A stretch of DNA of 39,646 nucleotides from a virus (lineage: Duplodnaviria > Heunggongvirae > Uroviricota > Caudoviricetes), in the IMG/VR virus record IMGVR_UViG_3300011827_000030, positions 1 through 39,646 of that record; one strand, 5' to 3'. The stretch's first letter is position 1, and each line of letters opens with the position of its first letter. The notes below the pieces were generated by a model. The model was not told the origin of the DNA, did no database searches, and saw only the letters and a program-made list of their open reading frames with translations. Made by a program: the position numbers and the translations under genes. This document shows, piece after piece, positions 1 to 37,040 of this stretch.

Positions 1-1053
1 TTACGGGGTAATGCCAACCGCTGCCGCCACTTTGTCGCCACTTGGCAGCGTTGCCAGAGGATTGAAACGGAGCGCCGTTTCCAGATGATCCGGTGCCAGA
101 TGTGCGTAACGCATAGTCATTTTTATATCGTGGTGTCCGAGAATTTTTTGTAAGGCCAGAATGTTTCCACCCGACATCATGAAGTGCGCCGCAAACGTAT
201 GGCGCAGAACGTGTGTGAGTTGACCGCGAGGGAGCACGATAGACGTTTTTTCCATCACTGATAAAAATTGAAAATAGCAGTCTGTGAAGAAATTGAACCC
301 ATCAAGCGCCATGATCTCTTCGTAAAGCTCTTTACTGATAGGGATGCTTCTGTTTTTCTTCCCCTTCGTTCTGACAAAGGTAATTCGGTATTTGGTCACC
401 TGTGAGCGAGTAAGATTTACGGCTTCACGCCAGCGTGCGCCTGTGCTTAAGCATATCTTAACTACCAGTGCCAGAATTGGGTCCTGACGTTTGCAATCAG
501 CCAGCAATTCAACAATCTGCTCATGGGTAAGCCATGCCATCTCTTTTTCTGCGATGGTGAATTTTCGCATGTTCTCCAGTGGGTTCGGATACGACCATTC
601 GCCCAGACGGGATAGTTCGCTAAAAACACTACTTAGATAGCTTTGCTCCAGGTTAATGGTGACCGGGCTTGCTCCTTTCTTCCATTTCTCGCTGAAGTAG
701 ATCTCGCCTGTCAGGCGTTTATCTCGATAGTGGGCAAACATTTTAGAGGTGAGATCGGTTGCAAGAGGATTGCCCAGAGCGTCAACCATCAACAGCAATT
801 TGTCATAGACATGCTGCCCAGCTGTCAGAGATTTACCATGTAGTTTGAACCATAGTTCAACCACGTCTTTCAGTGTTCGACGATCCACTGATTCACCCAG
901 CCAGGGCTTTGCTTCGGTTTCTTCCATCGTGTGACGCTCAAAAGCCAGAGCTTCGCCTTTGGTGGCGAATTGTTTACGCACACGACGTCCACTACGTCCG
1001 GCGGGGTAACATTCGCAAAGCCATTTTCCTGTGGTGAGTTTTCGTACTGCCAT
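1..1053 (-). CDS. int: Tyrosine-type site-specific integrase (P2/186 Int-like)
   Basis: 350-aa ORF; the C-terminal region (HVLRHTFAAHFMMSGGNILALQKILGHHDIKMTMRYAHL) shows the R..HxxR..Y catalytic signature of tyrosine recombinases; sits at the prophage end next to the att repeat. Confidence 0.9.
   Translation of the reverse strand: MAVRKLTTGKWLCECYPAGRSGRRVRKQFATKGEALAFERHTMEETEAKPWLGESVDRRTLKDVVELWFKLHGKSLTAGQHVYDKLLLMVDALGNPLATDLTSKMFAHYRDKRLTGEIYFSEKWKKGASPVTINLEQSYLSSVFSELSRLGEWSYPNPLENMRKFTIAEKEMAWLTHEQIVELLADCKRQDPILALVVKICLSTGARWREAVNLTRSQVTKYRITFVRTKGKKNRSIPISKELYEEIMALDGFNFFTDCYFQFLSVMEKTSIVLPRGQLTHVLRHTFAAHFMMSGGNILALQKILGHHDIKMTMRYAHLAPDHLETALRFNPLATLPSGDKVAAAVGITP
19..41. other. 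attL: Putative attL core (left copy of direct repeat CGCTGCCGCCA-Y-TTTGTCGCCA), lying inside the 3' end of int
   Basis: Sequence cgctgccgccactttgtcgccac at 19-41 recurs with one internal mismatch at 36821-36843, immediately after the ogr stop. Confidence 0.6.
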
Positions 1054-1136: not shown

Positions 1137-2813
1137 CTAAGCAACATGCAGTTCATCGTTGGCGGAAGTTGCTGCTTTGCGCTCTTGCTCAATCGCCAGT
1201 GACTCTCTATATTCTTTCGCTTCCGCAAACATTGTCCATTGTGCGTTGATGTTCATATCTTCAATAACAGACTTAATTTCTTTAATATTTACGTTGAAAA
1301 ACTCTTTTCGTGAGTTAATTTTATTGACCTGTTTTTCGTTGAAGACTTTATGCAGATGATTTTCTAATGATGGTGCATCATCACTATAAATCATCGCATG
1401 AACATCGAACGAAAAAGGAACACTAGCATCACCGAGTTCACGAACACGATCAAGTGGTTCAAGGCGGCGTGTCATTCCAATTTTATATACATCTTCGCCA
1501 AATGAGCCAATATTACTAATTATATAAACGTGGCCTGATCTAGTTTGTTGAGCCATAGAAATAGCTCGTTGGTTTTTAGCTTCAGCTTCTTCATATTTTA
1601 ACTGTAGTTCAGCTATTTTTTGCTCTAAAGCTAAGCGTTGTTCTTCATTTGCAAGCATAAGCTCTTTTGTTGCTTTATTTATAGCTTGCTGAATAGCTTT
1701 CTCTTCTTTTTCAGCTTCTTTTATCGCTTTTTCATACTCCCTACGAGCTCTTTCCTCTTCACGAAGTTGTTCTTTAATCCTTCTTTGCTCTTCTTTTTCT
1801 TCGAGCATAATTTCATTAACTGCAACTCCCCATTTTAGCTCGTTGAGTCGAGCTTGAAGATAGATGTCACTTATTTTTGCGGACCTAAAGGCAGAACCAT
1901 TGTAATTTACAAGTTGAAACGCATCTTTTATCTCTTGGGAAAGTTTTCCAAAATTGTTGTGTTTGACTTTTGATAAAATACTGTCAACTCTTCCATTGAA
2001 GGCATCTAAAACAAAGTTGATAGCAGTATTACGCCTGTTTTGTTCAACATAATCACACGAAGCAGCTTTATTAGTTTTTATTAATAATTTTGTTAACTCC
2101 CTGGCTTTTTGTAATTCCTTACCTGCATCTGTAAACTCATAATTTTCTGCCAATTCATCGAGAACGCTACGGTTAGGGATGATCCATTCATCACCATAAC
2201 CTTCAATTTTATTTTTCATTGATTTGGCAACTGCTTCATATTTTTCTGCAAACTCTTTAGCTTCATATGCTGAACCAGCAATCTCTTTTGCTCTTTCTTC
2301 TGCATCGGAAATAATTTTCACTGCATTGTCATTAGCATTTGAGATCAGCTCATTTGCTTTACTATTGGCATTATCAAGACGTTCTTTAGCTTTCAGGCGT
2401 GCATCGCGAGCGTCTTTAGTAATTGCTATAGCTTCGCTATTAGCGTTGCTTATTTTTATCTGAGCTTGATAATTTGCTTCGTTTACTGTCTTAGCAGCCT
2501 TTATTTGGGCTTCTTCTATTTTTTGCCTGGCTATTGAGTCTGCATTTTTTATCTTATTCTCTGCTTCCATCACTGCGCTGTGCAATTCTACGTATTGCCA
2601 TAATGGCGCAGCTCGTCCTTCAAGCTCTGATAGATCTCGTACAGTCTGTGCTAATTCTTCTTGATTTTCTTTCAGTTGGTTGGAAAGGGCTATGTTGTTA
2701 GCTGTCAAGGTATTTATAGCCGCTTTATGTTTTTTGCTTTGCTTAAATAATATTACAGCTAGAATGGGGGCGAGAAATGCTAATAAGAATATAACGATGG
2801 AAAATGAATTCAT
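1137..2813 (-). CDS. Cargo protein: N-terminal transmembrane helix, long coiled coil, C-terminal T5orf172 (GIY-YIG-like) domain; candidate defence or lysogenic-conversion gene
   Basis: 558 aa; hydrophobic N-terminus SFSIVIFLLAFLAPILAVILF; K/E/A/Q-rich heptad-like stretches; C-terminal GHVYIISNIGSFGEDVYKIGMTRRLEPLDRVRELGDASVPFSFDVHAMIYSDDAPSLENHLHKVF...EFFNV matches the recalled T5orf172/DUF4041 pattern; gene is AT-rich relative to the phage backbone; RBS AAGGA precedes the ATG. Confidence 0.75.
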   Translation of the reverse strand: MNSFSIVIFLLAFLAPILAVILFKQSKKHKAAINTLTANNIALSNQLKENQEELAQTVRDLSELEGRAAPLWQYVELHSAVMEAENKIKNADSIARQKIEEAQIKAAKTVNEANYQAQIKISNANSEAIAITKDARDARLKAKERLDNANSKANELISNANDNAVKIISDAEERAKEIAGSAYEAKEFAEKYEAVAKSMKNKIEGYGDEWIIPNRSVLDELAENYEFTDAGKELQKARELTKLLIKTNKAASCDYVEQNRRNTAINFVLDAFNGRVDSILSKVKHNNFGKLSQEIKDAFQLVNYNGSAFRSAKISDIYLQARLNELKWGVAVNEIMLEEKEEQRRIKEQLREEERARREYEKAIKEAEKEEKAIQQAINKATKELMLANEEQRLALEQKIAELQLKYEEAEAKNQRAISMAQQTRSGHVYIISNIGSFGEDVYKIGMTRRLEPLDRVRELGDASVPFSFDVHAMIYSDDAPSLENHLHKVFNEKQVNKINSRKEFFNVNIKEIKSVIEDMNINAQWTMFAEAKEYRESLAIEQERKAATSANDELHVA

Positions 2814-5330: not shown

Positions 5331-6184
5331 GCACCATCTTGAAATGGGCGGGAAATAAAACCGCCGTAATGTCCGAACTGAAAAAACATCTTCCTGCTGG
5401 TCCGCGACTAGTTGAACCTTTCGCGGGTTCCTGTGCTGTGATGATGGAGACGGATTATCCCTGCTATCTGGTTGCGGATATTAATCCTGATTTAATCAAC
5501 CTCTATAAAAAGGTTGCCGCTGATTGTGAATCGTTTATATCTCGCGCCAAAGTTTTATTTGAGATCGCAAACAGGGAGGTGGCTTATTACAACATAAGGC
5601 AGGAGTTTAATTACTCAACTGAAATTACTGATTTCATGAAAGCGGTATATTTCCTGTATCTCAATCGTCACGGTTACCGTGGGTTATGTCGCTATAACAA
5701 GAGCGGGCATTTCAACATTCCCTACGGTAATTATAAAAATCCGTATTTCCCTGAAAAAGAAATTCGCGCTTTTGCAGAAAAAGCCCAGCGAGCAACGTTT
5801 ATCTGCGCCAGCTTTGATGAAACGCTGGCGATGTTGAAGGCGGGGGATGTGGTGTATTGCGATCCGCCTTATGACGGTACGTTTTCCGGCTATCACGCTG
5901 ACGGCTTTACTGAAGATGACCAGTATCACCTGGCATCCGTTCTTGAACATCGGTCATCAGAAGGACATCCGGTCATTGTTTCTAACAGTGACACATCCCT
6001 GATCCGTTCGCTGTATCGCAATTTTACTCACCACTATATCAAGGTAAAACGCAGCATCGGCGTAGCAGCTGGTGAGAGTAAATCAGCAACAGAAATCATT
6101 GCTGTTTCCGGGCCGCGCTGCTGGGTGGGATTTGATTATTCGCGTGGCGTGGATAGTTCTGCCGTGTACGGAGTACGTGCATGA
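5327..6184 (+). CDS. dam: DNA adenine methyltransferase (Dam-like, GATC-type N6-adenine methyltransferase)
   Basis: N-terminal LKWAGNK and PFAGS motifs plus DPPY catalytic motif ([14 protein letters not shown]); RBS GGAGG; ATGA overlap with the upstream gene. Confidence 0.85.
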
Positions 6185-8595
6185 GCCATGCCGATATGAG
6201 CAACTGCTGCGGCTTTAACGAGGCTGCCGCATCGTTCTCATGGAACAGCCCGAAAAAGGCCATTAACCCTTATCTGGACCCGGCGGAAGTTGCGCCGGTT
6301 TCTGCGCTTTCAAACCTGATCACTCTGTACGCTGCCGATAACGAGCAGGAACAACTGCGCCGCGAGGCACTGAGTGATCAGGTCTGGGAGCGTTATTTCT
6401 TTAATGAATCCCGTGATCCTGTCCAACGCGAAATAGAGCAGGATAAGCTCATTAGCCGGGCAAAGTTGGCGCATGAGCAGCAGCGTTTTAACCCGGACAT
6501 GGTCATTCTGGCAGACGTCAGCGCCCAGCCCTCCCATATCAGCAAGCCGCTGATGCAACGTATTGAATACTTCAGCAGCCTGGGCAGGCCAAAGGCTTAT
6601 TCCCGCTATTTACGTGAGACGATTAAGCCATGTCTGGAACGACTGGAGCATGTACGCGACAGCCAGCTATCTGCATCTTTTCGTTTTATGGCAAGCCATG
6701 TAGGGCTGGACGGCCTGCTGATTCTGCCTGAAATGAGTCAGGATCAGGTGAAACGCCTGTCTACCCTTGTCGCTGCGCATATGAGCATGTGCCTTGATGC
6801 AGCTTGTGGTGATTTGTATGCCACCGATGACGTTAAGCCAGAAGAAATCCGCAAGACATGGGAAAAGGTGGCAGCGGAAACCCTGCGTCTGGATGTCATC
6901 CCGCCTGCGTTTGAGCAACTCCGTCGGAAAAGAAACCGCCGTAAACCCGTGCCCTATGAACTCATTCCGGGTTCGCTGGCGCGTATGTTGTGCGCCGACT
7001 GGTGGTACCGGAAATTATGGAAAATGCGTTGCGAATGGCGGGAAGAGCAGTTGCGTGCTGTCTGCCTGGTCAGCAAAAAAGCATCTCCCTATGTCAGCTA
7101 TGAAGCCGTGATGCATAAACGTGAGCAGCGCCGCAAGTCACTGGAGTTTTTCCGTTCTCATGAACTGGTGAACGAAGAGGGCGACACGCTGGATATGGAA
7201 GACGTGGTAAACGCCAGCAGCAGCAACCCGGCGCACCGCCGCAATGAGATGATGGCCTGTGTTAAAGGTCTGGAGCTTATCGCGGAAATGCGCGGTGACT
7301 GCGCCGTTTTCTACACCATTACCTGTCCGTCACGTTTCCATTCCACGCTCAATAACGGCAGACCAAACCCAACCTGGACAAATGCGACGGTAAGACAAAG
7401 CAGCGATTATCTGGTCGGCATGTTTGCTGCATTTCGTAAGGCGATGCACAAAGCCGGGTTGCGCTGGTATGGCGTGCGGGTGGCTGAGCCGCATCATGAC
7501 GGTACAGTTCACTGGCACCTGTTGTGTTTCATGCGCAAAAAAGACCGCCGCGCCATTACTGCATTGTTGCGTAAGTTTGCCATCCGTGAAGACCGCGAGG
7601 AACTGGGTAATAACACTGGTCCACGCTTTAAATCTGAGCTGATAAACCCGCGCAAAGGAACGCCGACAAGCTACATCGCGAAATACATCAGTAAGAACAT
7701 TGACGGGCGTGGTCTGGCTGGCGAGATCAGCAAGGAAACGGGTAAATCCCTGCGTGATAACGCTGAATACGTTAATGCCTGGGCGTCTCTGCATCGTGTT
7801 CAGCAATTCCGCTTCTTTGGTATTCCGGGACGTCAGGCTTACCGTGAACTTCGCTTGCTGGCTGGTCAGGCGGCAAGGCAACAGAGTGACAAAAAAGCAG
7901 GTGCGCCGGTACTGGATAACCCGCGTCTTGATGCCATTCTGGCTGCTGCTGATGCTGGTTGTTTTGCCACCTACATCATGAAGCAGGGCGGCGTACTGGT
8001 TCCCCGCAAATATCACCTCATCAGAACCGCTTATGAAATCAACGAAGAGCCAACCGCCTATGGCGATCACGGTATTCGTATTTATGGCATCTGGTCACCC
8101 ATTGCAGAGGGCAAGATCTGCACTCATGCAGTGAAGTGGAAAATGGTTCGTAAGGCCGTTGACGTTCAGGAGGCGGCAGCCGACCAGGGCGCTTGCGCCC
8201 CTTGGACTCGTGGCAATAACTATCCCCTTGCTGAAAATTTGAACCAACAGGAGAAAGATAAATCAGCTGATGGGGACACCAGAACGGACATTACCCGCAT
8301 GGATGACAAGGAGTTGCACGATTACTTGCACAGTATGAGCAAAAAAGAGCGCCGGGAACTGGCTGCAAGGTTACGCCTGGTTAAACCGAAACGGCGTAAA
8401 GACTACAAACAGCGAATTACAGACCATCAGCGACTGCAGCTCGTCTATGAGCTGAAGTCCAGAGGATTTGATGGTAGCGAGAAAGAGGTCGATTTACTCC
8501 TTCGCGGCGGCAGTATTCCGTCAGGAGCAGGCCTGCGTATCTTCTATCGGAACCAGCGTTTGCAGGAAGATGATAAGTGGCGGAACCTGTATTAA
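6181..8595 (+). CDS. A: Replication initiation protein A (rolling-circle nicking endonuclease, P2 gpA-like)
   Basis: 804 aa; HUH-type motif (GTVHWHLL) and active-site tyrosine motif ([14 protein letters not shown]) typical of P2 A; conserved position after the early genes. Confidence 0.9.
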
Positions 8596-8664: not shown

Positions 8665-8693
8665 TTTACATCAGTAATATTATTATATACTGT
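8665..8693 (+). promoter_or_regulatory. Candidate sigma70 promoter whose -10 overlaps the LexA box
   Basis: TTTACA at 8665-8670 with TATACT/TACTGT about 15-17 nt downstream. Confidence 0.4.
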
Positions 8694-8707
8694 AAATATA
8701 AACAGTG
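8688..8707. promoter_or_regulatory. LexA (SOS) box taCTGTaaatataaACAGtg
   Basis: Perfect CTGT-N8-ACAG with an AT-rich centre, about 40 nt upstream of the small ORF and dinI-like gene. Confidence 0.7.
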
Positions 8708-8747: not shown

Positions 8748-8936
8748 ATGCAGGACTATTTTTTGGAGTCTTTGAAGCTCCAGCGCATTGATTTTTTTCT
8801 TAAGCTTGTAGCGGCTAGTGAGTGTAGTGATGAAGAGAAGGGGCTGGCTCTGCAGTGGGTTTCTGAACTGACAGATGAACTCATGGCAAAAATCAGAACC
8901 CACGAATACAACCGCTCAATGGATGTCATCAGCTGA
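8748..8936 (+). CDS. Small SOS-box-associated protein (possibly Tum-like antirepressor; unverified)
   Basis: 62-aa ORF with RBS AGGAGG immediately upstream, directly downstream of the LexA box; functional call is by analogy to the 186 SOS-controlled antirepressor, not by recognised sequence. Confidence 0.45.
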   Translation: MQDYFLESLKLQRIDFFLKLVAASECSDEEKGLALQWVSELTDELMAKIRTHEYNRSMDVIS

Positions 8937-8946
8937 GGTGACTTTT

Positions 8947-9180
8947 ATGCGCATTGAAATAATGATCGATAAAGAGCAGAAGATTAGCCAGTCTACACTG
9001 GACGCCCTTGAATCCGAGCTTTACCGCAATCTGCGCCCCCTGTATCCCAAAACGGTAATCCGTATCCGTAAAGGTAGCTCTAACGGTGTGGAACTGACCG
9101 GACTGCAACCGGACGAAGAAAGAAAACAAGTGATGAAAATTATGCAGAAGGTGTGGGAAGACGACAGCTGGCTGCATTAA
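8947..9180 (+). CDS. dinI: DinI-family protein
   Basis: 77 aa, MRIEIMIDKEQKISQSTLDALESELYRNLRPLYPKTVIRIRKGSSNGVELTGL...VWEDDSWL aligns by eye with E. coli DinI. Confidence 0.85.
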   Translation: MRIEIMIDKEQKISQSTLDALESELYRNLRPLYPKTVIRIRKGSSNGVELTGLQPDEERKQVMKIMQKVWEDDSWLH

Positions 9181-9624
9181 GAAATGTTGCCCCCAGGAGG
9201 ATTCATTCTAATGGGGGCTAGTTTGGGCAACGAGTGAAACGAGGCGTAAGGTGGGTAATCATTTTGATAAGTGATCGCCCACTTTGTGCCAAAAGCGGAC
9301 ATCGCAGATATGACAATATGTTAGTCAACCGCGATTAGATCAGTCAGTTGGAGATGGGGGGAAGTTACAAAAACTTGTCGTCCGCCATCTCCGACTACGG
9401 GTATTCTTAACTGTACATGCTCTTTCAATCGATGATTTTTGAGTAAGTGACTAACCTATTGTTTTGATAGTAATTAAACGTATAAACGTGCGGAGTTAAT
9501 TTGAAAGTTATGTGTCTATGTTTGACAAGCAAAATTTTAAAGATTGGTTTTATCCACAGGTAATTTATGCTATTAATAGCCTCAAGCCCTGTAATTATTT
9601 TTATTTAAATGGATAAATTTGAAA

Positions 9625-11745
9625 ATGAGTACATATCATAATGATCAGCCAATACTAGGTGGTCAAAATGACCCCGATTTATTAAACAGGCTCGATTTTG
9701 CAAATCACTTGGCAAATATTCTACTATTAAATCACAATGATGATTGCCTTACTGTATCTATAGAGGCAGAGTGGGGATATGGTAAAACGTCAGTGATAAA
9801 TCTTATAAAAGGTGCTTTGAATGAAAAGGAGTTCTTACCAATAATAATAGAATATAATCCATGGCTGGCCGGTCAACCTGAATCCTTGATTCAGGATTTT
9901 TTATTACAGTTCTCTTCACAACTAAATATTAAAGACAATTCAAAAGCTGCTTTGGAAGCTTCAAAAGAATTAATTGCATACTCCAATCTCTTCAGTGTAG
10001 CAAAACTTATTCCAGGGACAGAACCTTGGGCATCTATCATAGAAAAAGTCCTCTCTAATTTTGGGAGTGCTACTAAAAAGATTGCTGAATTAAAAAAACT
10101 GGATCTTTTAGGTAGAAAAAAACAAGTAGAGAAGGCAATAAAAAAAATAAAAAATCCTATTGTGGTAATAATTGATGATTTTGATCGATTGACTCCTACA
10201 GAAACTTTTCAAGTTTTACGATTGGTTAAAGCAGTTGCAGATTTCTCAGGAACTTCTTTTTTACTTGCATTTGATCCTAATTATTTGATTTCTGTGCTTG
10301 ATAAAAATAATATCGTCAATTCTTCGGAGTATCTTAATAAAATTGTTCAACTTCGAGTCCCACTTCCTGTAATCTCAGAAAGGGGTATGAATGAACTTGC
10401 AAATGCAGAACTGGAAAAGATAGCTAATAAATCTTTAACTGACAGATTCGAAAGTGATCAAGAAAGACTAAGCTGGATTTATCATAATTATTTTAAAAAA
10501 CTAATTAAGAATCCGAGAGAGTTAAAAAGATTTTTTAACCATTTGAGATTCGTTTTAGAGCAAATTGAAGGGCAGGTATGTTTTTCTGATCTCTTTGCTT
10601 TATCTCTGGTTGCCACTAAATCGAGTTTGGTATACGAGCATATTAAAAGCACACCAGAGGCATATATAGGGAAGAGATTCACTAATGATGGCCTTTTGAT
10701 GGATAAACCTCAAGATATTGTGGATAGATTTAGTGATGAGCGAAATAAGAAACTGAGTAATTTTTCTGATCAAGAGCGTTCAGTGATGCAGGAACTCTTA
10801 GGAGATATTTTCCCACTTCTACAGTCAAGCGGGTATTCTCATTATGGGGTTTCTGATCCCGATACAGCAGGAAGGGTTTCTGCACCACAAAGGCTTCATA
10901 TTGCGTTTCATTATAAAACTCCAGCAGGGTATATTTCTGATCATGATATTATCAGTTTCATTAATGGAGATGTTAAAAGAAACGAATTTCTAAGAGATGT
11001 GCTCTCGCAAAATGCAGAAGAAAGATTTTTTGAAATGATGAATAATTATTCGAGTTATTGTAAGGATAATAGTTTTGAAATATTAACGTGTATTTATGAT
11101 ACTTTTCTGTTTTCTCAAGAATTGAAATCCTCATTGGAAAGAAACTATGGTTTTTTGACAAAAGATCTTTATAGAAGGATGAATTGGCTCACTAATAAGG
11201 TAATATCTGAAAGTGATGATAAATATGGGTTAATAAAGGGGGTTGTAGGTAGGCATGAGAATGCGCCACTTGGTGCAGACGTATTATGCCAAGCTCGTAA
11301 ACAGATTCAAAATGGATGGAATGACAAAATATGGGTTAGTATTGAAGAATTGGCTGAACTTGAAGGTATCTTTCAACAGGTGGCTATTAAAGTTTTAAGT
11401 GATAAAATATATTTTGATTATCATCTTGAATCTCATATATTTTTCGAATTAAAGAGAGTTTCATCTCAATTTACATCAGAGTTTATTGCTTCTGTATTAT
11501 CAAGTGATGGCCTGATTAGGATGTGTGAGATTATTGGTGAAACAGGTAGTGATTCAACAAATGGCCCTTTTTTTAAGTTTGATGAAATTTACTTCGGGGA
11601 AATACTTGATGTGAATGAACTTCGAAATAAAGCGAAAAATTTAGATTTTTCAATTTATCCCACACGCATTCAAGCTGTACTTAAGAGTATTCTGGATGGA
11701 CAAAAATATTATTTGAGAGATGCAACTGTTGGTGAAGATTGGTAA
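9625..11745 (+). CDS. KAP-family P-loop NTPase (cargo, candidate defence gene)
   Basis: 706 aa from ATG 9625; Walker A EAEWGYGKTS (9766-9792) and Walker B hhhhDDFDR (IVVIIDDFDRLTPTE) with a long helical C-terminal region, the KAP NTPase signature; gene is AT-rich; no obvious TM helices. Confidence 0.8.
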   Translation: MSTYHNDQPILGGQNDPDLLNRLDFANHLANILLLNHNDDCLTVSIEAEWGYGKTSVINLIKGALNEKEFLPIIIEYNPWLAGQPESLIQDFLLQFSSQLNIKDNSKAALEASKELIAYSNLFSVAKLIPGTEPWASIIEKVLSNFGSATKKIAELKKLDLLGRKKQVEKAIKKIKNPIVVIIDDFDRLTPTETFQVLRLVKAVADFSGTSFLLAFDPNYLISVLDKNNIVNSSEYLNKIVQLRVPLPVISERGMNELANAELEKIANKSLTDRFESDQERLSWIYHNYFKKLIKNPRELKRFFNHLRFVLEQIEGQVCFSDLFALSLVATKSSLVYEHIKSTPEAYIGKRFTNDGLLMDKPQDIVDRFSDERNKKLSNFSDQERSVMQELLGDIFPLLQSSGYSHYGVSDPDTAGRVSAPQRLHIAFHYKTPAGYISDHDIISFINGDVKRNEFLRDVLSQNAEERFFEMMNNYSSYCKDNSFEILTCIYDTFLFSQELKSSLERNYGFLTKDLYRRMNWLTNKVISESDDKYGLIKGVVGRHENAPLGADVLCQARKQIQNGWNDKIWVSIEELAELEGIFQQVAIKVLSDKIYFDYHLESHIFFELKRVSSQFTSEFIASVLSSDGLIRMCEIIGETGSDSTNGPFFKFDEIYFGEILDVNELRNKAKNLDFSIYPTRIQAVLKSILDGQKYYLRDATVGEDW

Positions 11746-12189
11746 TACTTTTATAGGCATGCTTAGAGATGATGGAGTATCTTTTTCTCCCTTTTGAGGA
11801 AGTGATTTCCAACTGGGCATGGATGCCACATCAAATGGACAGTTGTTGTCACCTGTCAGTTAGCTGCTATTTGTTTATAGCAGCTGAAAGCCCACTACAT
11901 AGTTACACCAGAAGGACTAACAATGTAGTGGATAGCTAAATTTGACCACCTTAACAGATATGTTAATTTCCCCCCCCTCGCTCACAGCGGACTTTCATCT
12001 TTGTAAACCCTTATAATTCGCTTTTCAGCGGTCATTCAGATACGGATTTACGCTTTCCTTGGCAGTGCATGACTATGACGCATGAGATCGCATGATAGTT
12101 TGAGGATCGTTTTTGCTGAGGCCAGCCAGAACTGGCGTGCTTTTGCTTATGTCATGCAGGTGCATGAAAACCACTACATAAAGTGGGCA

Positions 12190-12208
12190 GGCGTGGCGGG
12201 GATACGAG
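12190..12208. other. cos: Candidate cos site (cohesive-end region) GGCGTGGCGGGGATACGAG
   Basis: First 13 nt match the 186/P2 cohesive-end sequences as I recall them (GGCGTGGCGGGGA...), followed by a GCGCGC element; sits in a 600-bp non-coding, higher-GC stretch at the A-side/Q-side junction where cos lies in P2. Confidence 0.5.
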
Positions 12209-12341
12209 CGCGCGTTATGACAAATAGATGATTAGCCTGATTTATTTACAGCTGTATAAATGATCACCTTGTAATTAGGTAAGTAATGTCTTCTATTATC
12301 ATTGATTTGATAGGATTAATCTGTTTTTTGAGGATTAGAGG

Positions 12342-14678
12342 ATGATTGAAGAGGTAGTTATTGACAAGGTAGGCTCATATAATGGCCCTACGCAGCTTTT
12401 ACATGGACTTTCTAAATTTAACTATTTATATGGAGCTAATGGTGCAGGTAAAACAACTATAAGTAAAATTATTAATGACCCTGAACAATATCCAACATGT
12501 CCGATTAAATGGAAAAATAATATATCTTTAATAAGCTACGTATATAATAAAGATTTTGTTGAAAGAAATTTTAGTCAAGATAAAATTAAAGGTGTATTTA
12601 CCCTTGGTAGCGATCTTAAGGAGGATGAAGAGAAACTAATATCTCTTAAAGAAGAAAAAAATAAGCTAATGGAATCTATTATAGCAAAGGAAAAGTTAAT
12701 AGATGGTGGTGATAATGAATTAGGCGTTATTAAAAAAATCGAAGACCATGAAAAATCTTTTAAAGATTCATGTTGGAAGCAAAAAGTAAAACATGACAAT
12801 GTGTTCTCAAAGGCTTTTGAGGGATTAAGGAATAGTAGTGAAAAATTTAAAGCCAGAGTGTTGGCTGAGTATGAAAATAATACATCAGAAGTTTGCTCAA
12901 TAGCAGAGTTAATTGAGAAAGCAAAAATTGTTTTTTCTACTGAATTGACATCACATGTATCAATTACAATTCCATCCTTCAATGGGATAGATGATATTTT
13001 GAGTAGGGAAGTTTGGAGTGAGCGCATCCTAGGGAAAAAAGACGTTAGTGTTTCAGACTTAATTACAATGCTCAATAACAGTGATTGGGTTAAGGAGGGT
13101 TTAACATATTTCAGTAAATCTAATCCCAAGTGCCCATTCTGCCAGCAGGATGTAAATGATAATATATTTGATAATCTTTCATCATATTTTGATAAAACAT
13201 ATGAGTTAAAAAAAAGAGAAATCGATGCATTGGTTTTACAATATGAATATCAACTTAATAATATCTTGAAGGCGATAGATGATATAAGGGCGATTAAATC
13301 TCCATTCATAAATTATGAAGTGTTTGAGGATAAGGCTAAGATAGTATTATCTGAATTAAACAAGAATTTTGAATTGGCAAAAAATAAACGCAATTTTTTA
13401 AGTGAATCAGTTCATTTTAGTGACTTAAGTGAAGTTGTTGATGATTTTATTTCTTTTTTGAATGATTCAAATCTATTGATAGATAATAATAACAAAATAC
13501 ATAGTAATAGAAAGGTAGAGGCTAGTAATCTTTCTAAGCAGATATGGGCATATATCGTAAAGGTGGAGTTAAAGTCTGAAATAACTTCTTACCGTAGCAA
13601 ATCTGATAAATTTAATAGGACGTTACAAGGACTTAAATCTGGGATAGAAGAAGACAAAAAGAAGTTAATGTTAAATACTTCGGCTATTGAGGCAATTGAG
13701 TCTAATAAAACCAGTACTCTTCCAACTATTACAAAAATTAACAAGATTCTGGACTCTTATGGCTTCAAAAATTTTTACTTAAAACCCTCCGAAGATAAAA
13801 AGCATTATATGATAGTGAGAGATAGTGGAGATAATGCTCGTACAACCCTTAGTGAGGGAGAAAAGACATTTATCACTTTTTTGTACTTTTATAGCCTTGT
13901 TAGAGGGAGTGATAATGCATCAGGTGTTTTAGATGATCGTGTTGTAGTATTTGATGATCCAATTTCAAGTTTAGATAGTGATATTCTGTTTATTGTAAGT
14001 TCGTTGATTAAAGATTTAATGGAGGATGTTCGTAAGGATGAAGGAAATATTAAGCAAATTATATTCCTTACTCATAATATTTATTTTCATAAAGAGTTGA
14101 CTTTTAATACCAAAAGATCCGGTAATCAAGCAATGAAAGAGGAGACTTTTTGGATTGTAAGGAAAAAAGGGAAGGTTTCATATCTTGAAAAGTGCGAATC
14201 AAACCCAATAAAAACGTCTTATGATTTGCTCTGGTGCGAATTGAGAAGAACAGACATTAATAATAATACTATACAAAATACAATGCGAAGGATTTTGGAG
14301 AATTACTTTAAGATATTAGGTGGGATGGATATTAGGAAGCTTGAGTGTCATTTTTATGGTGATGAAAAAATCATATTTAAATCTTTAGTGTCATGGATTA
14401 ATGATGGTTCCCATTTTGCAGGTGATGATCTTTATATGAATTTAGATACGGAGTCTGTGCAAAAATATTTAATTGTTTTTCAGAAGATATTTGAATGTAG
14501 TGAGCATACTGCCCATTACAAAATGATGATGGGTGAGTTTTATAAACCGTTAAATGAGTCACTTCATCTACAAGATGAGTTTGATATAGATGATAGTGCG
14601 AATGATGAGTATGCTTCGTCAAAAATTGAGATAAAAGATGGAATAAACACATCTCTACATAGCAACACATATTTGTAA
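12342..14678 (+). CDS. RloC-like ABC/SMC-type ATPase with coiled-coil insert, CxxC zinc hook and PrrC-like C-terminal putative nuclease (cargo, candidate defence gene)
   Basis: 778 aa; Walker A GANGAGKTT (12432-12458); CPFC at 13131-13142 near the middle of the predicted coiled coil; signature-like LSEGEKT, Walker B VVVFDDP, H-loop FLTHN; C-terminal region contains RRILE and IRKLECH (14334-14351); RBS AGAGG; AT-rich. Confidence 0.75.
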   Translation: MIEEVVIDKVGSYNGPTQLLHGLSKFNYLYGANGAGKTTISKIINDPEQYPTCPIKWKNNISLISYVYNKDFVERNFSQDKIKGVFTLGSDLKEDEEKLISLKEEKNKLMESIIAKEKLIDGGDNELGVIKKIEDHEKSFKDSCWKQKVKHDNVFSKAFEGLRNSSEKFKARVLAEYENNTSEVCSIAELIEKAKIVFSTELTSHVSITIPSFNGIDDILSREVWSERILGKKDVSVSDLITMLNNSDWVKEGLTYFSKSNPKCPFCQQDVNDNIFDNLSSYFDKTYELKKREIDALVLQYEYQLNNILKAIDDIRAIKSPFINYEVFEDKAKIVLSELNKNFELAKNKRNFLSESVHFSDLSEVVDDFISFLNDSNLLIDNNNKIHSNRKVEASNLSKQIWAYIVKVELKSEITSYRSKSDKFNRTLQGLKSGIEEDKKKLMLNTSAIEAIESNKTSTLPTITKINKILDSYGFKNFYLKPSEDKKHYMIVRDSGDNARTTLSEGEKTFITFLYFYSLVRGSDNASGVLDDRVVVFDDPISSLDSDILFIVSSLIKDLMEDVRKDEGNIKQIIFLTHNIYFHKELTFNTKRSGNQAMKEETFWIVRKKGKVSYLEKCESNPIKTSYDLLWCELRRTDINNNTIQNTMRRILENYFKILGGMDIRKLECHFYGDEKIIFKSLVSWINDGSHFAGDDLYMNLDTESVQKYLIVFQKIFECSEHTAHYKMMMGEFYKPLNESLHLQDEFDIDDSANDEYASSKIEIKDGINTSLHSNTYL

Positions 14679-14691
14679 TTTTATTACAATT

Positions 14692-14717
14692 GCCAGTAGC
14701 AACAATACGGTACTGGC
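14692..14717. terminator. Hairpin GCCAGTA-N12-TACTGGC between the convergent RloC-like gene and Q (weak terminator candidate)
   Basis: 7-bp inverted repeat with an adjacent AT-rich palindrome TTGTAATTTTATTACAA; no clean U-tract. Confidence 0.3.
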
Positions 14718-14727
14718 AACTAATATT

Positions 14728-15759
14728 TTAGTTAAGCTCATATGGAGAAAATTCTATAAGTTTTTCCCCGAGCCATGCATTAATTTCTCTAAATCGTTTT
14801 TGCAAAGGAATTAATTCATTTATCACAAAAACCTTACTAGCCTTCTCCACATCCCCAAACCCCCCGACATTATTAGGCATAATCCCCATCATTTGCGGTG
14901 GAACGCGGTGTGCCGCCATCATGTCATCGCGACTAACATTTTTGATATTCAGAAACTCATCCTTCGCTGCGACTTCTGATAACGGGATAATCTGAAGCCC
15001 GTCCTTTTTGCCGTTAGGTGAGTACATAAACAGGTTGCGGAAGTTGCCCGGCCCTTTGGCGCTTTTCATCGCATTGCGGAGGTTGTTCACATCCTCCTGG
15101 TTTTGCGCGGCATCGGTCATATACATGATGAAGCCTGCATGGCTGCCGTTGATGTAATACTTGCGGCGGAACAGCGTGGCGGACTCGTTGAGCAAAGCGG
15201 ATGGGATGGCAGAAAGATAACCGGGCAGGCCGTAGATCTCCTGGTTGATGTCCGGTTCCATCAGATGAAAGATGCTGCCTTTCGTGAACTGATACGGCTG
15301 TGTTGTCATACCGTATTGCACAAACCAGTAGGTTTCCAGGTCTAACCCGCGTCGGGTGTATTTTGCCAGGGCCGGTTCAAGGGCGATAACTTCACCGAAG
15401 CGGTTCGTGCGTTTCTCCAGGTAGGCGTTACCAAATACCAGATAGTCCTGCACAAAACGTGAAAAAGCCTGCTGGCTGAGCAGCGGGTGAGGGATGTAGG
15501 TACTGGTCAGAATGTTGCATTTTACTGCAATCGGGGAGCTGTGATGCACGGCAGCGCGGAAGGTGCGTGCCAGTCCGTCAAAACTTACGGGTGGCTCATA
15601 CCAGCGATCCGTCTGTACGCATTCCACATAGTCCAGCAGTTCGCGGCGGTCCAGTACAGGAATGGGATCACCAAAGCTGAAAGCTTCGGCTGAAGTTTGA
15701 TTTTTATGCTGGCTCTGTTTCGTCGCCGCAGCGCGGTTTTTCTTACTCTTTCCCATCAA
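14728..15759 (-). CDS. Q: Portal protein (P2 gpQ-like)
   Basis: 343 aa, length and position as P2 Q; leftward, overlapping the terminase gene by 4 nt. Confidence 0.85.
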   Translation of the reverse strand: MMGKSKKNRAAATKQSQHKNQTSAEAFSFGDPIPVLDRRELLDYVECVQTDRWYEPPVSFDGLARTFRAAVHHSSPIAVKCNILTSTYIPHPLLSQQAFSRFVQDYLVFGNAYLEKRTNRFGEVIALEPALAKYTRRGLDLETYWFVQYGMTTQPYQFTKGSIFHLMEPDINQEIYGLPGYLSAIPSALLNESATLFRRKYYINGSHAGFIMYMTDAAQNQEDVNNLRNAMKSAKGPGNFRNLFMYSPNGKKDGLQIIPLSEVAAKDEFLNIKNVSRDDMMAAHRVPPQMMGIMPNNVGGFGDVEKASKVFVINELIPLQKRFREINAWLGEKLIEFSPYELN

Positions 15760-17522
15760 AAAATCTCCACAATATTGCTGGTATTGGCGGACTCGCCCTG
15801 CAGCGGTTCGTTAAACAGTGCGTGCATTGTTGCCCAGGCCAGATCGGCGTGGCTGGCTTCTTCGCTGCGGTTGGCTTCATAGGTCGGGCGGTTGCCGCTG
15901 GCGGTGGTGGCGCGACGGATAGCCATGAATGACTGCGCAATGTCGGTGTGCCCGGCGTCAAACTCCAGACGGCGGTGGCTGATAATGTCGTAGGCCTTGA
16001 GTACCAGGGCGTTTTTAACGTTGGAGTTGTAGACAAACTCCCGGACGGCAGGAAAGAACGCTTTCACGTTCTCATAAACCCCGTGACCAACGCCGGTCGA
16101 GTCGATACCGATATAGGTCACGTTGTACTGTTCGGTCAGTTTTTTGATGGCGTCAGCCTGGGCGCGGAAGTCCATCCCGCGCCACTGGTGACGCTCAAGA
16201 ATGCGGAACTTACCGCCCGGCACGGCTGGCGGTGCCACCACCACGCATCCGGCGCTGTCGCCGTTTTGCGTACCTTTTGCCGGGTCATAACCGATCCACA
16301 CTTCGCGCCAGCCAAACGGGCGCAGAGCCAGTGCATGAAAGTCGGTCCAGACTTCCCAGCTGTCCACCATGCACGCCTGCAGCTCGCTGAGCGGAAACAC
16401 GGACGCGAGATCGTCCACAAACTCGCACATCAGCAGGTTCTGGTATTCGTCCGGGCTGTACTCCATGCGCAACTGGTCAAGGTCGAAAAGGTTACATCCG
16501 CCGCGCACTGCATCTTCCACGGTGACTATCTGGCGGTATTGCCCGTCTGCGCACAGCAGGCCGGGGGCCAGATTGCTGTGGGACAGGTCGATGTCCACCT
16601 TGTCAGCTTTGTTGCGTCCACGGTTGAACAGCGCACCGGACCAGAACGGATAAGCACTGTGGGTCAGGCTGGATGGCGTGGAAAAATAGGTTTGTCGCCA
16701 TTTCTTGTGAATAGCCATCCCGGAAGCCACTTTGCGCAGCTCCTGGAATTTCGGTATCCAGAAATATTCATCCAGATACAGGTTGCCGTGATAACTCTGG
16801 GCCGTGCGGGCATTGGTGCCGAGGAAGTAAAGCGTGGCTCCGTTAGGAAGCACCATCGGATCGCCTTTTAGCTCCACCTCGACTTCTTTGGCGAAGTCGA
16901 TGATGTATTGTTTAAAGACGTGGGCCTGAGCTTTACTGGCAGAAAGGAAAATCTGGTTACGTCCGGTAAGCAGGGCGTCAATCAGGGCTTCACGGGCAAA
17001 ATAGAAGGTCGCGCCGATCTGGCGAGACTTCAGCAGGTTGCGGATGCGGTTGGTTTTTCCGGCTTCCCACCAGTGGCGCTGGTAGTTGAACATGGAGGAA
17101 TGGAAGATTTCTTCCAGCTTCTCAATCTGTTCATCGGTGAAGACATTCTTTTCCGGCTGACGGCGTGGGCCTTTGTTGCGGTTGGCGACGTTAGGGTTTA
17201 AGTCGGCTTCGTTGCCGCCATTGTTAAACTTGCCGATCCGCGCGTGGCGCTCTGACTGGCGCGCCAGCAGGTCAATCTCTTTGAAATCTTTCCCTTCTTT
17301 GTGCTCCTTCATAATGAGCTGGCAGTAGCGGGCGGCGGTGGTGAGCTGCATCTGATCCAGTGGCCCATAGTCACCCCACTTGTCGCGTTTCTTCCAGCTG
17401 TGAACGGTTGCAACTTTCTCGCCCAGCATTTCAGCAATGCGGGCTACGCGGTATCCCTGAAAGTACAGCAGCATGGCCTGCCGACGGGGATCGAGATCTG
17501 CGGGTGTCAGTGTGGTGTTCAT
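15756..17522 (-). CDS. P: Terminase large (ATPase) subunit (P2 gpP-like)
   Basis: 588 aa, length and position as P2 P; divergent from O across a late promoter region. Confidence 0.85.
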   Translation of the reverse strand: MNTTLTPADLDPRRQAMLLYFQGYRVARIAEMLGEKVATVHSWKKRDKWGDYGPLDQMQLTTAARYCQLIMKEHKEGKDFKEIDLLARQSERHARIGKFNNGGNEADLNPNVANRNKGPRRQPEKNVFTDEQIEKLEEIFHSSMFNYQRHWWEAGKTNRIRNLLKSRQIGATFYFAREALIDALLTGRNQIFLSASKAQAHVFKQYIIDFAKEVEVELKGDPMVLPNGATLYFLGTNARTAQSYHGNLYLDEYFWIPKFQELRKVASGMAIHKKWRQTYFSTPSSLTHSAYPFWSGALFNRGRNKADKVDIDLSHSNLAPGLLCADGQYRQIVTVEDAVRGGCNLFDLDQLRMEYSPDEYQNLLMCEFVDDLASVFPLSELQACMVDSWEVWTDFHALALRPFGWREVWIGYDPAKGTQNGDSAGCVVVAPPAVPGGKFRILERHQWRGMDFRAQADAIKKLTEQYNVTYIGIDSTGVGHGVYENVKAFFPAVREFVYNSNVKNALVLKAYDIISHRRLEFDAGHTDIAQSFMAIRRATTASGNRPTYEANRSEEASHADLAWATMHALFNEPLQGESANTSNIVEIF

Positions 17523-23118: not shown

Positions 23119-24870
23119 CTATTGGTTGAATATAAAGCTGATAATATTTTCAGGAGTGAGCTCTATGTTTTTTTTATTAAGTTTTTGAATGTACATTTTA
23201 TATTTCATTTCAACGTTTCGGAAGCCTTGCGCAACAGAAAGTATTTCTACAGGATGAGATGAAAGCTTTATTAAGGAGTTAATGACTGCATCTAGGTAGA
23301 TGTGAGCATGTTCAACTAAAACATTTGTTTTTGATGGGGTTTTTCCAGTGTGAACTATCAAGTTTCTAGTTCTATATATTCTCCTAATTTGCCAGTTGAT
23401 TCTTTCTGCATGATTTTTAAGTGCCTGATACATAGTATCAGTTGAGGAAATTAAATTGCTAATATATTCAAATCTCTCTTTCAATAACGGAAATTGTGAG
23501 AGTTCTATCTTAAACTGATTGATGCTAGGGGCATGTTCTTGCGAAGCAACAAGAATTACAAATGATTTGGCTGCATCGCTATCTCCAATTAGTCTTAGAA
23601 GTGACATGGTTCGAGGATGATTCCATCGTTGTAAGTCTTTTATAAGATTCCTTACTAGGTCTTCAATATAATTCAGGTTTAAAAATGGTGTTAATGAATT
23701 AACGATATGTTCTATCGTGGATTGTTCTTCTTTTTTTGATTCGTCGGGGATGAGTGATTCAATAGCAATCCATAAATTTAAAAGCTGATTTTCTACAGCA
23801 TTTGTCTGTAGTGCCATTGAATGTAATTGTACACTTCTTATGAATTTATTGAAAGAATCCTTGCGCATTCTGAAATTATTCATGAATTGTTCGAGTCTTC
23901 TGCTTGCGTGTTCCTGAACCAGATCCTTGCAGCGGTGCATTGGGTTTATGCTGCTTCTTATATTGATTTTTTCACCATTTTCACTAACTACAATGTTCTC
24001 TGCAGACCATGATGCTTCTTGCTTATGATGATAGAGAGAAAGCAAAGTTGATGCGAGCTTTAAGTTTCTTTCAGCTACCCTTCTAGCCGTGAATGGATCA
24101 AGTGCTTTAACATGCTTAACTAAAATAGTTCGTTGTTCATGATTATCGAAGAAATCTGTTTCATTAATATTTTCGGGGGTTTCAAGAACAACCTCAATTT
24201 CTAATTGTGATAAGCATGGAGTAATATAACTAAAAGATTTGTCAGCATTGAAATAAACTGAATATTCTTGTGTCTCTGAGGGGATGTTCTCTAGGAATGT
24301 AATAATCTCTTCATTTGAACTGATCTCTCGTTCTCTTTGGAAGAAATGTTTTTTTAGACTTTCCATCAAATATTCTTGACTTAATCCTTTTGATATTAGG
24401 TGGGTAATCAACAGTCTTGTAAACTTTCGAATTTTATTTGGGTTGTATTCTGAAGTTATTGTAGAGCAAAGTTCACTGATGAGTTTGCTTTCATAATTAT
24501 CAACATTAAGTTGAACTCTCAGTAATTCAAGAGTTATTTTTAGATTTTTATTTCCTAACTGATTGTTTTGGAGTTGATCTAAAAATGAACCTAAAGGGTT
24601 TTTTAGAAGACTGATTGCGATGTCATCATTCTTAATATTTTTAGTTAATTCGTCAATGACGTGGGATATATGTGCGGGGCTTATGTTGCCTTTTTCTATA
24701 TCATCGATTGTTGATATTGCTTCTATACATAAACTTGGAGTGTTCATTATAGAAGGTTTATATGTACTATGGGTGTAATCAAAGAGAAGTTCCTCCATTA
24801 ACTCGGTGAAATAAATAAGCGCAGTGCATTGTTCAATATGATTCCAGTTGTGTAGTCTTCTAAATTTCAT
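23119..24870 (-). CDS. Cargo protein with C-terminal HEPN-like RNxxxH motif (candidate abortive-infection RNase), inserted between S and V
   Basis: 583 aa from ATG 24870 (RBS AAGG upstream; the listed ORF extends to a TTG at 24990); motif IRRIYRTRNLIVHTG encoded at 23350-23373; opposite strand to flanking tail genes; AT-rich. Confidence 0.7.
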   Translation of the reverse strand: MKFRRLHNWNHIEQCTALIYFTELMEELLFDYTHSTYKPSIMNTPSLCIEAISTIDDIEKGNISPAHISHVIDELTKNIKNDDIAISLLKNPLGSFLDQLQNNQLGNKNLKITLELLRVQLNVDNYESKLISELCSTITSEYNPNKIRKFTRLLITHLISKGLSQEYLMESLKKHFFQREREISSNEEIITFLENIPSETQEYSVYFNADKSFSYITPCLSQLEIEVVLETPENINETDFFDNHEQRTILVKHVKALDPFTARRVAERNLKLASTLLSLYHHKQEASWSAENIVVSENGEKINIRSSINPMHRCKDLVQEHASRRLEQFMNNFRMRKDSFNKFIRSVQLHSMALQTNAVENQLLNLWIAIESLIPDESKKEEQSTIEHIVNSLTPFLNLNYIEDLVRNLIKDLQRWNHPRTMSLLRLIGDSDAAKSFVILVASQEHAPSINQFKIELSQFPLLKERFEYISNLISSTDTMYQALKNHAERINWQIRRIYRTRNLIVHTGKTPSKTNVLVEHAHIYLDAVINSLIKLSSHPVEILSVAQGFRNVEMKYKMYIQKLNKKNIELTPENIISFIFNQ

Positions 24871-24914
24871 ATTAATACCTTGTTTTGTGAAGCTTGAATT
24901 TACCTTTAGCGCAT

Positions 24915-24932
24915 TGTTTGTTGCTTCATACA
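24915..24932. promoter_or_regulatory. Late-activator (Ogr) site TGT-N12-ACA upstream of V
   Basis: TGTttgttgcttcatACA, part of the longer palindrome tgtttgttgcttcatacaaaca, in the 108-bp gap between the cargo gene start and V. Confidence 0.5.
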
Positions 24933-24978
24933 AACATGGTTTGTTTGTGATCTCAAGTGTTTGATTAAGAATTTGAGA

Positions 24979-36843: not shown

Positions 36844-37040
36844 CGTTAAAAAACAGTGCTTCTAACATCATGATTTTAAACAGCTTAAATTTCAGGCAAC
36901 AAAAAACCCATCAACCTTGAACCGAAGTGGCGGGGGTGGTGGGCTCCCCAAAAAGGGGACATCAAAGAAAAGCAGTGGCATTACTTATGACTGATGCCCT
37001 GAGAAAAAGTTCTGCCTGTGACGGCTTTTTTCTCAAAAAA

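Follow-up and report, generated by a model that had tools for sequence, protein, structure and literature searches.

A cos-adjacent RloC-like gene, putatively encoding an anticodon nuclease, in a P2/186-like prophage of Escherichia coli

Introduction

What is encoded by the gene that lies between the cohesive-end site (cos) and the portal gene of a P2/186-like Escherichia coli prophage, and could it help to defend the lysogen against other phages? The prophage, together with host flanks, makes up IMG/VR virus record IMGVR_UViG_3300011827_000030 (positions 1 to 39,646), and this whole stretch of 39,646 nucleotides is referred to below as the window. A preliminary description of the window had read the product of the gene, located at 12342..14678 on the + strand, as an RloC-like ATPase with a Rad50-style zinc hook and a PrrC-like C-terminal region. 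Reported in 2008 as a tRNase that responds to DNA damage (PMC2610378), RloC is, as studied in Geobacillus kaustophilus (GkaRloC) and Acinetobacter baylyi (AbaRloC), a wobble-nucleotide-excising, zinc-responsive anticodon nuclease (Davidov & Kaufmann 2008; Klaiman et al. 2012, 2014; PMC2610378, PMC3458546, PMC3874168), and prediction tools routinely count it as a defense system. The RloC orthologs studied come from hosts without convenient phages, and no infectious phage of Acinetobacter baylyi ADP1 was known at the time of study.

We conclude that the product of 12342..14678 very probably belongs to the RloC family. The family, the hotspot and the accession of the locus are already known, and novelty is low; the main value of the locus is as a tractable E. 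coli system for work on the antiviral role, the trigger, and the structure of RloC.

Identity of the gene product

The RloC-like gene is an open reading frame (ORF) of 778 codons plus a stop codon in the ORF list of the window, and it starts at an ATG that is the earliest in-frame one following a stop. Its coding sequence is identical to that of RefSeq WP_001741452.1, where the product is named "AAA family ATPase." Pfam AAA_13 aligned with residues 10-718 over positions 2-713 of the 713-position model (E 2.2e-163), and the PADLOC model PDC-S06 (PDLC04890) aligned with residues 1-734 over positions 1-726 of 732 (E 1.6e-266). PHROG 2801, a family of unknown function, was also a full-length match. 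The PADLOC PrrC model aligned over residues 460-704 alone (E 5.4e-11). The profile comparison suggested in the preliminary description, against AAA_13 and PrrC, gave matches to both. Chance is ruled out as the source of these profile matches. No NCBIfam model covers the family of the protein, and PDB sequence and profile searches with the whole protein, the full-length alignment, and an alignment of the C-terminal domain returned nothing meaningful.

A database search with the protein recovered 675 relatives. Among the best 120 of these, most are ~735-780 amino acids (aa) long, most cover 94% of the query, and several at 42-45% identity were named "wobble nucleotide-excising tRNase" by JGI. 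Distant prophage homologs carry the annotation "translation-disabling ACNase." Two alignments were used to assess conservation: one of 65 sequences, from which invariance was called and which also served as input for structure prediction, and one of 235 full-length homologs with 27-94% identity.

ATPase motifs, hook motif, and catalytic triad

The motifs of the predicted protein, all taken from the translation, are as follows.

12432..12458, + strand: Walker A (P-loop) GANGAGKTT, residues 31-39, with K37
13131..13142, + strand: CPFC, residues 264-267, putative zinc-hook motif
13848..13868, + strand: ATP-binding cassette (ABC) signature LSEGEKT, residues 503-509
13941..13976, + strand: Walker B VVVFDD and D-loop SSLD, residues 534-545
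14064..14078, + strand: H-loop (switch histidine) FLTHN, residues 575-579, with H578
14286..14300, + strand: RRILE (R649-R650-I-L-E653), the Arg-X3-Glu of the RloC/PrrC triad motif
14409..14414, + strand: S690-H691, the triad histidine, 37 residues past E653

The motifs named earlier, among them Walker A, the signature, Walker B, FLTHN, RRILE, and IRKLECH, were all borne out by the translation, at any position stated for them; VVVFDDP begins at residue 534, and the Walker B/D-loop stretch from that residue reads VVVFDDPISSLD. The ATPase residues are strongly conserved. G31, G36, K37, and T38 of Walker A, L503, S504, E505, G506, and E507 of the signature, D538, D539, P540, S542, S543, and D545 of the Walker B/D-loop stretch, and T577, H578, and N579 of the H-loop are unchanged across the 65 sequences. 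In the larger alignment, K37 is found in 231/235 homologs and S504, D538, D539, and H578 in all 235.

CPFC is the sole CxxC of the protein, as had been noticed before, and it lies near the midpoint (residue 273) of the helical insert that splits the ABC head. CPFCQ is near-invariant (C264 in 234/235, P265 in 235/235, C267 in 233/235, and Q268 in 234/235). Two other cysteines, C53 (12498-12500) and C144 (12771-12773), are unchanged in the 65 sequences and kept in 212 and 206 of the 235, respectively; each stands beside an invariant tryptophan, C53 in the N-lobe and C144 in the first helices of the arm.

In the C-terminal region, the preliminary description had singled out RRILE and IRKLECH as motifs compatible with a nuclease. 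The former stood up, since R649 occurs in 235/235 homologs and E653 in 234/235. The latter did not: the histidine of IRKLECH (which starts at residue 664), H670, is kept in 20/235 homologs, and H691, within NDGSH, is present in all 235, with S690 before it in 234. The conserved histidine is thus H691 and not H670.

The published definition of RloC (Davidov & Kaufmann 2008; PMC2610378) comprises the ABC motifs of PrrC, an insert made of helices around a central CX2C loop, the motif Arg-X3-Glu-X36-52-His, often with a serine before the histidine, and a size of 658-897 aa. The protein has the ABC motifs, an insert at residues ~93-454 with CPFC at 264-267, the series R649-X3-E653-X37-S690-H691, and a length of 778 aa. 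Because every sequence feature of the published definition is present, we place it in the RloC family, in agreement with the architecture first proposed. Judged from its sequence, the gene is intact and apparently functional, and is an ordinary, already catalogued member of that family.

Predicted structure of the head and arm

An AlphaFold2 model of the protein, built from the 65 sequences, had a mean predicted local distance difference test score (pLDDT) of 81.3 and a predicted template modeling score (pTM) of 0.58, and both ABC lobes were confident. The model divides the protein outside the ABC lobes into the following parts.

12618..13703, + strand: helical insert splitting the ABC head, residues ~93-454 (AlphaFold2 model and covariation)
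14109..14546, + strand: C-terminal domain, residues ~590-735, putative anticodon nuclease (AlphaFold2 domain model)
14547..14675, + strand: acidic C-terminal tail, residues 736-778, predicted to be disordered (AlphaFold2 pLDDT)

A roughly 460-residue heptad-rich segment had been reported between the ATPase motifs; that figure is the distance separating Walker A from the signature, and the helical insert itself is ~360 residues (93-454). It was modeled as a run of helices of 20-44 residues rather than as one hairpin, including helices 93-121, 129-151, 285-318, 325-351, 363-388, 390-409, and 411-454. CPFC falls in a non-helical gap with helices 247-260 and 274-282 on either side. A Foldseek search of the PDB returned Rad50 (7zr1_C, E 5e-7) as the top match, followed by PARIS AriA, Lamassu LmuB, heads of SMC proteins, and retron PtuA.

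The claim that CPFC lies at a coiled-coil apex was examined by mean-field direct-coupling analysis of the 235 sequences. An antiparallel covariation ladder at i+j ~552-558 pairs residues ~100-151 with ~404-455 and corresponds to a head-proximal coiled coil. Another, at i+j ~514-525, pairs ~196-261 with ~270-318 and places a fold-back apex at ~257-263, just ahead of CPFC. Two further ladders pair ~200-215 with ~378-392 (antiparallel, i+j ~591) and 320-352 with 360-392 (a hairpin, i+j ~700). The first two ladders hold 20 of the 150 top long-range pairs compared with 6.5 expected, in windows that were picked post hoc. Covariation thus backs an antiparallel fold-back with its apex beside CPFC, in a way that is supportive rather than decisive. 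In our reading of the model and the ladders, a distal helical hairpin would carry CPFC at its tip, and the arm would be a compact multi-helix fold-back, unlike the long rod of Rad50. The coiled coil expected at the outset would thus have an apex next to the cysteines, with several fold-backs in place of a single long two-stranded coil.

Beyond the C-terminal domain, pLDDT drops to 28-37 over residues 740-778, and most homologs, at ~735-760 aa, stop short of this tail.

C-terminal domain and nuclease assignment

Modeled alone, residues 590-739 formed a beta-hairpin and seven helices (pLDDT 79.5, pTM 0.73). A Foldseek search with this model identified no relative among solved structures (best E 0.86), and neither RloC nor PrrC was found to have a solved structure in the PDB or the literature. 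When 1.84 billion representatives were searched with a profile of the domain, 1225 clusters matched, 781 with E ≤ 1e-10. The same ~740-aa architecture is shared by almost all of the 150 best, and the shorter matches that were inspected are fragments of the same family, not PrrC. A HEPN fold has been put forward for the PrrC/RloC/APECO1_4465 group (Anantharaman et al. 2013; PMC3710099). For the present domain, HEPN is a candidate fold: the model matched no solved fold, and the canonical HEPN Rx4-6H spacing was not seen around H691.

We assign the domain as a putative anticodon nuclease, by homology, because the triad is near-invariant in the 235 homologs and the PrrC profile alignment passes through the domain. 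These two results support the earlier suggestion of a PrrC-like C-terminal region. It is improbable, in our estimate, that the domain is something other than an anticodon nuclease, whether an enzyme acting on another substrate (mRNA, rRNA, or DNA) or a non-catalytic regulatory or oligomerization domain. Such a role would fit the lack of a solved-fold match for the domain model and of Rx4-6H spacing around H691, and specificity could have drifted, given 25% identity over the first 400 aa to the other RloC-like lineage of the hotspot described below. Against it stand the near-invariance of R649, E653, S690, and H691, whose order and spacing are those of the GkaRloC triad, the course of the PrrC alignment, and the absence of a Mre11/SbcD-type partner gene adjoining the RloC-like gene.

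Distribution and genomic hotspot

The gene lies among the following features.

6181..8595: replication endonuclease (window gene list, Pfam)
9619..11745, + strand: KAP-family P-loop NTPase, 708 aa (Pfam KAP_NTPase, E 1e-45)
12190-12208, + strand: cos core GGCGTGGCGGGGATACGAG, 19 nucleotides, 133 bases ahead of the RloC-like start codon (alignment)
14728..15759, - strand: portal (gene list, Pfam, RefSeq annotation)

The location between cos and portal proposed earlier was correct, the portal gene ending at 14728 on the - strand. The P2 cos 19-mer, allowing up to 3 mismatches, had no match in the window; the variant present there was recognized in the sequence itself and confirmed by aligning it with other loci and with P2, where GGCGTGGCGGGGATACGAG followed by GCGCG lines up with the annotated P2 cosL GGCGAGGCGGGGAAAGCAC followed by TGCGCGC. 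The 150-bp cos flank at 12064-12214, which ends just past cos, is conserved in 75 P2-like phage records, and similarity between loci ends within ~10 bp to the right of cos.

The A-to-Q interval beside cos is a published defense hotspot of P2-like phages (Rousset et al. 2022; PMC9122126). The order of endonuclease, cos, and portal in the window places the RloC-like gene within it, a context that, as context, agrees with the suggested defense module. Table S5A of that study lists the present locus by accession, with the arrangement "KAP_NTPase + AAA_13" (PMC9122126), and its accessions for the KAP, AAA, and DinI-like proteins are those annotated in strain D7. In Table S5B, "AAA_13" is system #5, with 420 occurrences and the remark "RloC-like"; AAA_13 systems are absent from the table of systems evaluated for defense (PMC9122126).

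The RloC-like cassette was present in 23 of 5426 complete E. coli genomes (at least 95% identity), and the full-length gene in 21 E. coli genomes, at 97.9-100% identity. Four annotated E. coli loci were inspected; in each of them the cassette abuts portal, and the four have different neighbors to the left of cos. In the window, the left-of-cos slot, on the opposite side of cos from the RloC-like gene, is filled by the KAP NTPase, whose N-terminal ~450 aa match PADLOC PifA (E 6e-64) and whose C-terminal ~260 aa are without a match. The pair of KAP and RloC-like genes was found in 7/5426 complete E. coli genomes, and elsewhere the same KAP gene is paired with a RES-domain protein in the cos-portal slot. 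The RloC-like gene assorts independently of its neighbors.

Relatives of the gene were also found next to cos in other elements. A 63%-identical gene occupies the same cos-portal slot in an Enterobacter 186-like prophage (L008), and a 51%-identical gene lies between psu and integrase in an E. coli P4-like satellite (L010, 1284-3569), 254 bp to the right of cos. The same cos core precedes the homologous genes of L008-L011 by 145-254 bp. In the P2-like, Enterobacter, and P4-satellite loci examined, the RloC-like gene is always to the right of the cos core and in the same orientation. In Pseudomonas, a 43%-identical gene is found near CD-NTase and Cap15, a neighborhood of the cyclic-oligonucleotide-based antiphage signaling system (CBASS).

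Comparison of the sites in the window (12190-12208), L007 (4691-4703), L008 (7856-7868), and L010 (1030-1042) shows that the cos-adjacent hotspot consists of two independent cargo slots, one on either side of cos. In strain K56-43-un, the cos-to-portal slot is occupied by a RES-domain NAD+ phosphorylase. In P2, the cos-to-Q interval (186 bp) is empty of genes, and old and tin are on the other side. L010 agrees with the idea that cos-adjacent cargo is exchanged between P2 phages and P4 satellites.

In strain C21 (H62/H63), the RloC-like match ends at about half-length, and the locus contains an IS5-like ISKpn26 transposase gene and a split KAP gene; the C21 locus is an example of inactivation of the cassette.

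Comparison with characterized systems

GkaRloC is the closest point of reference. Compared by published motif positions, the two proteins have the same motif order, with K37/K44, C264/C291, and D538/D572 as counterparts, and the triad R649/E653/H691 (n=37) corresponds to R692/E696/H737 (n=40) of GkaRloC. Mutation of any of these three GkaRloC residues abolished tRNA cleavage and toxicity (PMC2610378). As in known RloC, the size is within the family range, there is no linkage to restriction-modification (R-M) genes, and a single stand-alone gene is present. Unlike GkaRloC and AbaRloC, which are chromosomal or carried by a transposon, the present gene is carried by a temperate phage beside cos, and unlike the RloC proteins studied, its product has an extra acidic, disordered tail of ~43 aa and an arm that is apparently a multi-helix fold-back.

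System #5 of the hotspot survey, the "RloC-like" AAA_13 group, shares the Pfam family, the hotspot, and the single-gene make-up, and CPFCQ and DWVK.G are at the same relative positions in both. The present lineage is much rarer, and we treat it as separate from system #5 because identity is just 25% over the first ~400 residues. The protein also matches, as a single gene, the profile of PADLOC PDC-S06, a candidate system for which the literature mentioning it gives predictions only.

EcoPrrC likewise has an N-terminal ABC ATPase domain, and its C-terminal nuclease region, in which an Arg-X3-Glu...His triad is present, is homologous to that of the protein described here. PrrC is an abortive, tRNA-cutting defense protein of 341-416 aa that has no coiled-coil/CxxC insert and nicks the anticodon loop only, and it is always found within a type Ic R-M locus, which silences it (PMC2610378). 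In contrast, the window protein has 778 aa and an insert of ~360 aa, and its neighbors are cos, the KAP NTPase, and portal, with no hsd genes.

P2 Old, PARIS, and Lamassu likewise combine an ABC ATPase sensor with a nuclease effector and are carried in the same hotspot. Their effectors differ, being a TOPRIM domain in Old and AriB and a separate LmuA protein in Lamassu, whereas that of the RloC-like protein is a fused helical domain of the PrrC/RloC type; old of P2 is to the left of cos and the RloC-like gene to the right. A 2026 preprint describes Old as likewise an abortive tRNase answering DNA defects. No TOPRIM domain was among the Pfam matches of the RloC-like protein at E ≤ 0.1, which upholds the earlier statement that it is not an OLD-family protein. 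In Rad50/SbcC, the ABC head is interrupted by an antiparallel coiled coil that bears CxxC at its apex, and Rad50 was the top fold match; the present gene has no Mre11/SbcD neighbor, and its product has a far shorter, multiply folded arm and an extra C-domain of 145 aa. Membership in OLD, PARIS, Lamassu, or Rad50/SbcC was rejected, as neither TOPRIM nor partner genes are present.

Proposed mechanism and alternative explanations

By analogy with characterized RloC, the gene probably constitutes a stand-alone, self-regulated anticodon nuclease defense cassette. In GkaRloC and AbaRloC, activation involves ATP hydrolysis with linear DNA, hook mutants are hyperactive, Zn2+ inhibits the wild type, and Walker A/B mutants are dead (GkaRloC/AbaRloC papers). 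In the lysogen, a comparable hook/ATPase switch would keep the nuclease silent. DNA ends or breaks generated by a superinfecting phage, or the breakdown of host DNA, would be bound by the ATPase head, and ATP hydrolysis would turn on the C-terminal nuclease, which would cleave tRNA anticodon loops. GkaRloC cleaves first on the 3' side and then on the 5' side of the wobble nucleotide, and repair by T4 Pnk/Rnl1 is expected to fail; excision by the present protein might similarly be beyond reversal by T4-type repair. Translation arrest would then leave no phage yield (abortive infection) and protect sibling lysogens and the prophage they carry.

Several points weigh against this proposal. tRNA cleavage, zinc binding, a DNA-end trigger, toxicity, and phage protection are all properties that we infer for the protein. 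The hook region is the least confident stretch of the AlphaFold2 model (pLDDT 58-66). In the literature found, no RloC is reported to protect against a phage, and RloC is marked "not tested" in a defense survey (PMC12322248). A further difficulty concerns the prophage itself, and involves the following features.

8690-8705: LexA box CTGTAAATATAAACAG, the only perfect one in the window
8748-8936, + strand: ORF of 62 aa, after the LexA box
8947-9180, + strand: DinI-like ORF, after the LexA box

The LexA box lies ahead of the 62-aa ORF and the DinI-like gene, an arrangement that we take to resemble the SOS-controlled antirepressor operon of phage 186 and that suggests that the prophage is SOS-inducible like 186. 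No perfect LexA box was found ahead of the RloC-like gene itself. Because a perfect box precedes the DinI-like operon, DNA damage might induce the prophage and at the same time trigger an RloC-type switch; how the system would avoid activating itself is unexplained.

This observation leads to an alternative in which the product is a true RloC-type nuclease that was selected not for defense against other phages but for a part in the prophage cycle, as a DNA-damage brake or kill switch that might, for example, tune SOS induction or stabilize the prophage. In A. baylyi, nalidixic acid, which induces DNA breaks, activates the native RloC with no phage present, the authors of that study discuss prophage-related roles, and the LexA box precedes the DinI-like gene as in SOS-inducible 186. 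We consider this unlikely, since a gene carried by only 23/5426 E. coli genomes is outside the core phage cycle, and since the gene and its relatives occupy variable hotspots of P2, P4, and a CBASS neighborhood, where cargo is freely exchanged and where an anti-phage function has been validated for other occupants. A single two-gene system, in which one of the KAP NTPase (9619..11745) and the AAA_13 protein would be the sensor and the other the effector, is very unlikely. The two genes are neighbors that share a strand and a low-GC island, and Table S5A gives them as one arrangement. They are, however, separated by ~600 bp with terminator-like sites and by cos, and because cos is between them they are at opposite ends of the packaged genome. 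Their pairing is confined to the 7 E. coli genomes noted above; the RloC-like gene has three other left neighbors and stands alone in Enterobacter and P4 satellites, the same KAP gene accompanies a RES-domain protein in the cos-portal slot, and characterized RloC is self-contained. The position of cos and the independent assortment led us to reject a two-gene system.

Decay is another explanation, under which the gene would be a non-functional relic of horizontally acquired DNA. The low GC content of the gene (0.31-0.34 compared with ~0.55), the lack of a strong consensus promoter in 12209-12341, and the disruption at about half-length in strain C21, with ISKpn26 in the locus, would be in keeping with it. 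It is nevertheless extremely unlikely: a frame of 778 codons is uninterrupted in AT-rich DNA, all catalytic and structural motifs are intact, and 21 E. coli genomes retain the full-length gene at near-identity.

Returning to the stand-alone defense cassette, the position of the gene on one side of cos may be functional rather than incidental. A more elaborate version, rather unlikely in our judgment, is that the cassette is linked to cos, is swapped between P2 and P4 via cohesive ends, and encodes an ATPase head tuned to the linear DNA ends of incoming or replicating phages while ignoring ends made by its own terminase. If true, it would be the first E. coli system occurring in nature that could show the antiviral role long proposed for RloC and its DNA-end trigger.

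Genomic setting and flanking elements

The prophage has the order integrase, CI repressor, replication endonuclease, DinI-like gene, low-GC island, portal, terminase, and P2-type head, lysis, and tail genes. The island, at ~9-15 kb, has a GC content of 0.31-0.39 compared with ~0.55 in the phage backbone, and it contains no Rfam families and no tRNA genes. The remaining features of the prophage and of the flanks of the RloC-like gene are listed here.

1..1053, - strand: integrase (prophage gene order)
12252..12271, + strand: 20-nucleotide element CTGTATAAATGATCACCTTG in the cos-to-start spacer, candidate promoter or operator (locus alignment)
14690..14719, no strand assigned: 9-bp inverted repeat TTGCCAGTA/TACTGGCAA, candidate bidirectional terminator (read from the sequence)
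15756..17522, - strand: large terminase (gene list, Pfam)

All 20 nucleotides of CTGTATAAATGATCACCTTG recur in the Enterobacter locus L008 and part of them in the P4-like L010, and the remaining spacer cannot be aligned. No consensus sigma-70 site was called in 12209-12341. The repeat TTGCCAGTA/TACTGGCAA lies between the convergent stops of the RloC-like gene and the portal gene, and P2 carries the terminator tQ at the equivalent place.

Two other ORFs of the prophage were examined. An ORF of 558 aa at 1137-2813 (- strand), between integrase and the CI repressor, has DUF4041 and T5orf172/MUG113 matches and matches PADLOC PD-Lambda-1 (E 1e-119); on these matches, it is likely to be a further defense cassette, and its position would be the third variable one in the prophage. 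Another low-GC island (GC 0.33), situated between baseplate gene V and the virion-morphogenesis/tail gene S, contains an ORF of 623 aa (23119-24990, - strand). This ORF is without a Pfam match and has a weak match to PADLOC ApeA (HEPN; E 1.6e-12), and no gene is annotated at this place in the prophage of strain D7, which matches otherwise.

Near the other end of the window, a RybB small RNA gene (36898-36976, - strand; Rfam 91 bits) and an Asp-Al_Ex/TrkA_C transporter gene (37041-38735, - strand) are host DNA, which places the right end of the prophage at ~36.5 kb.

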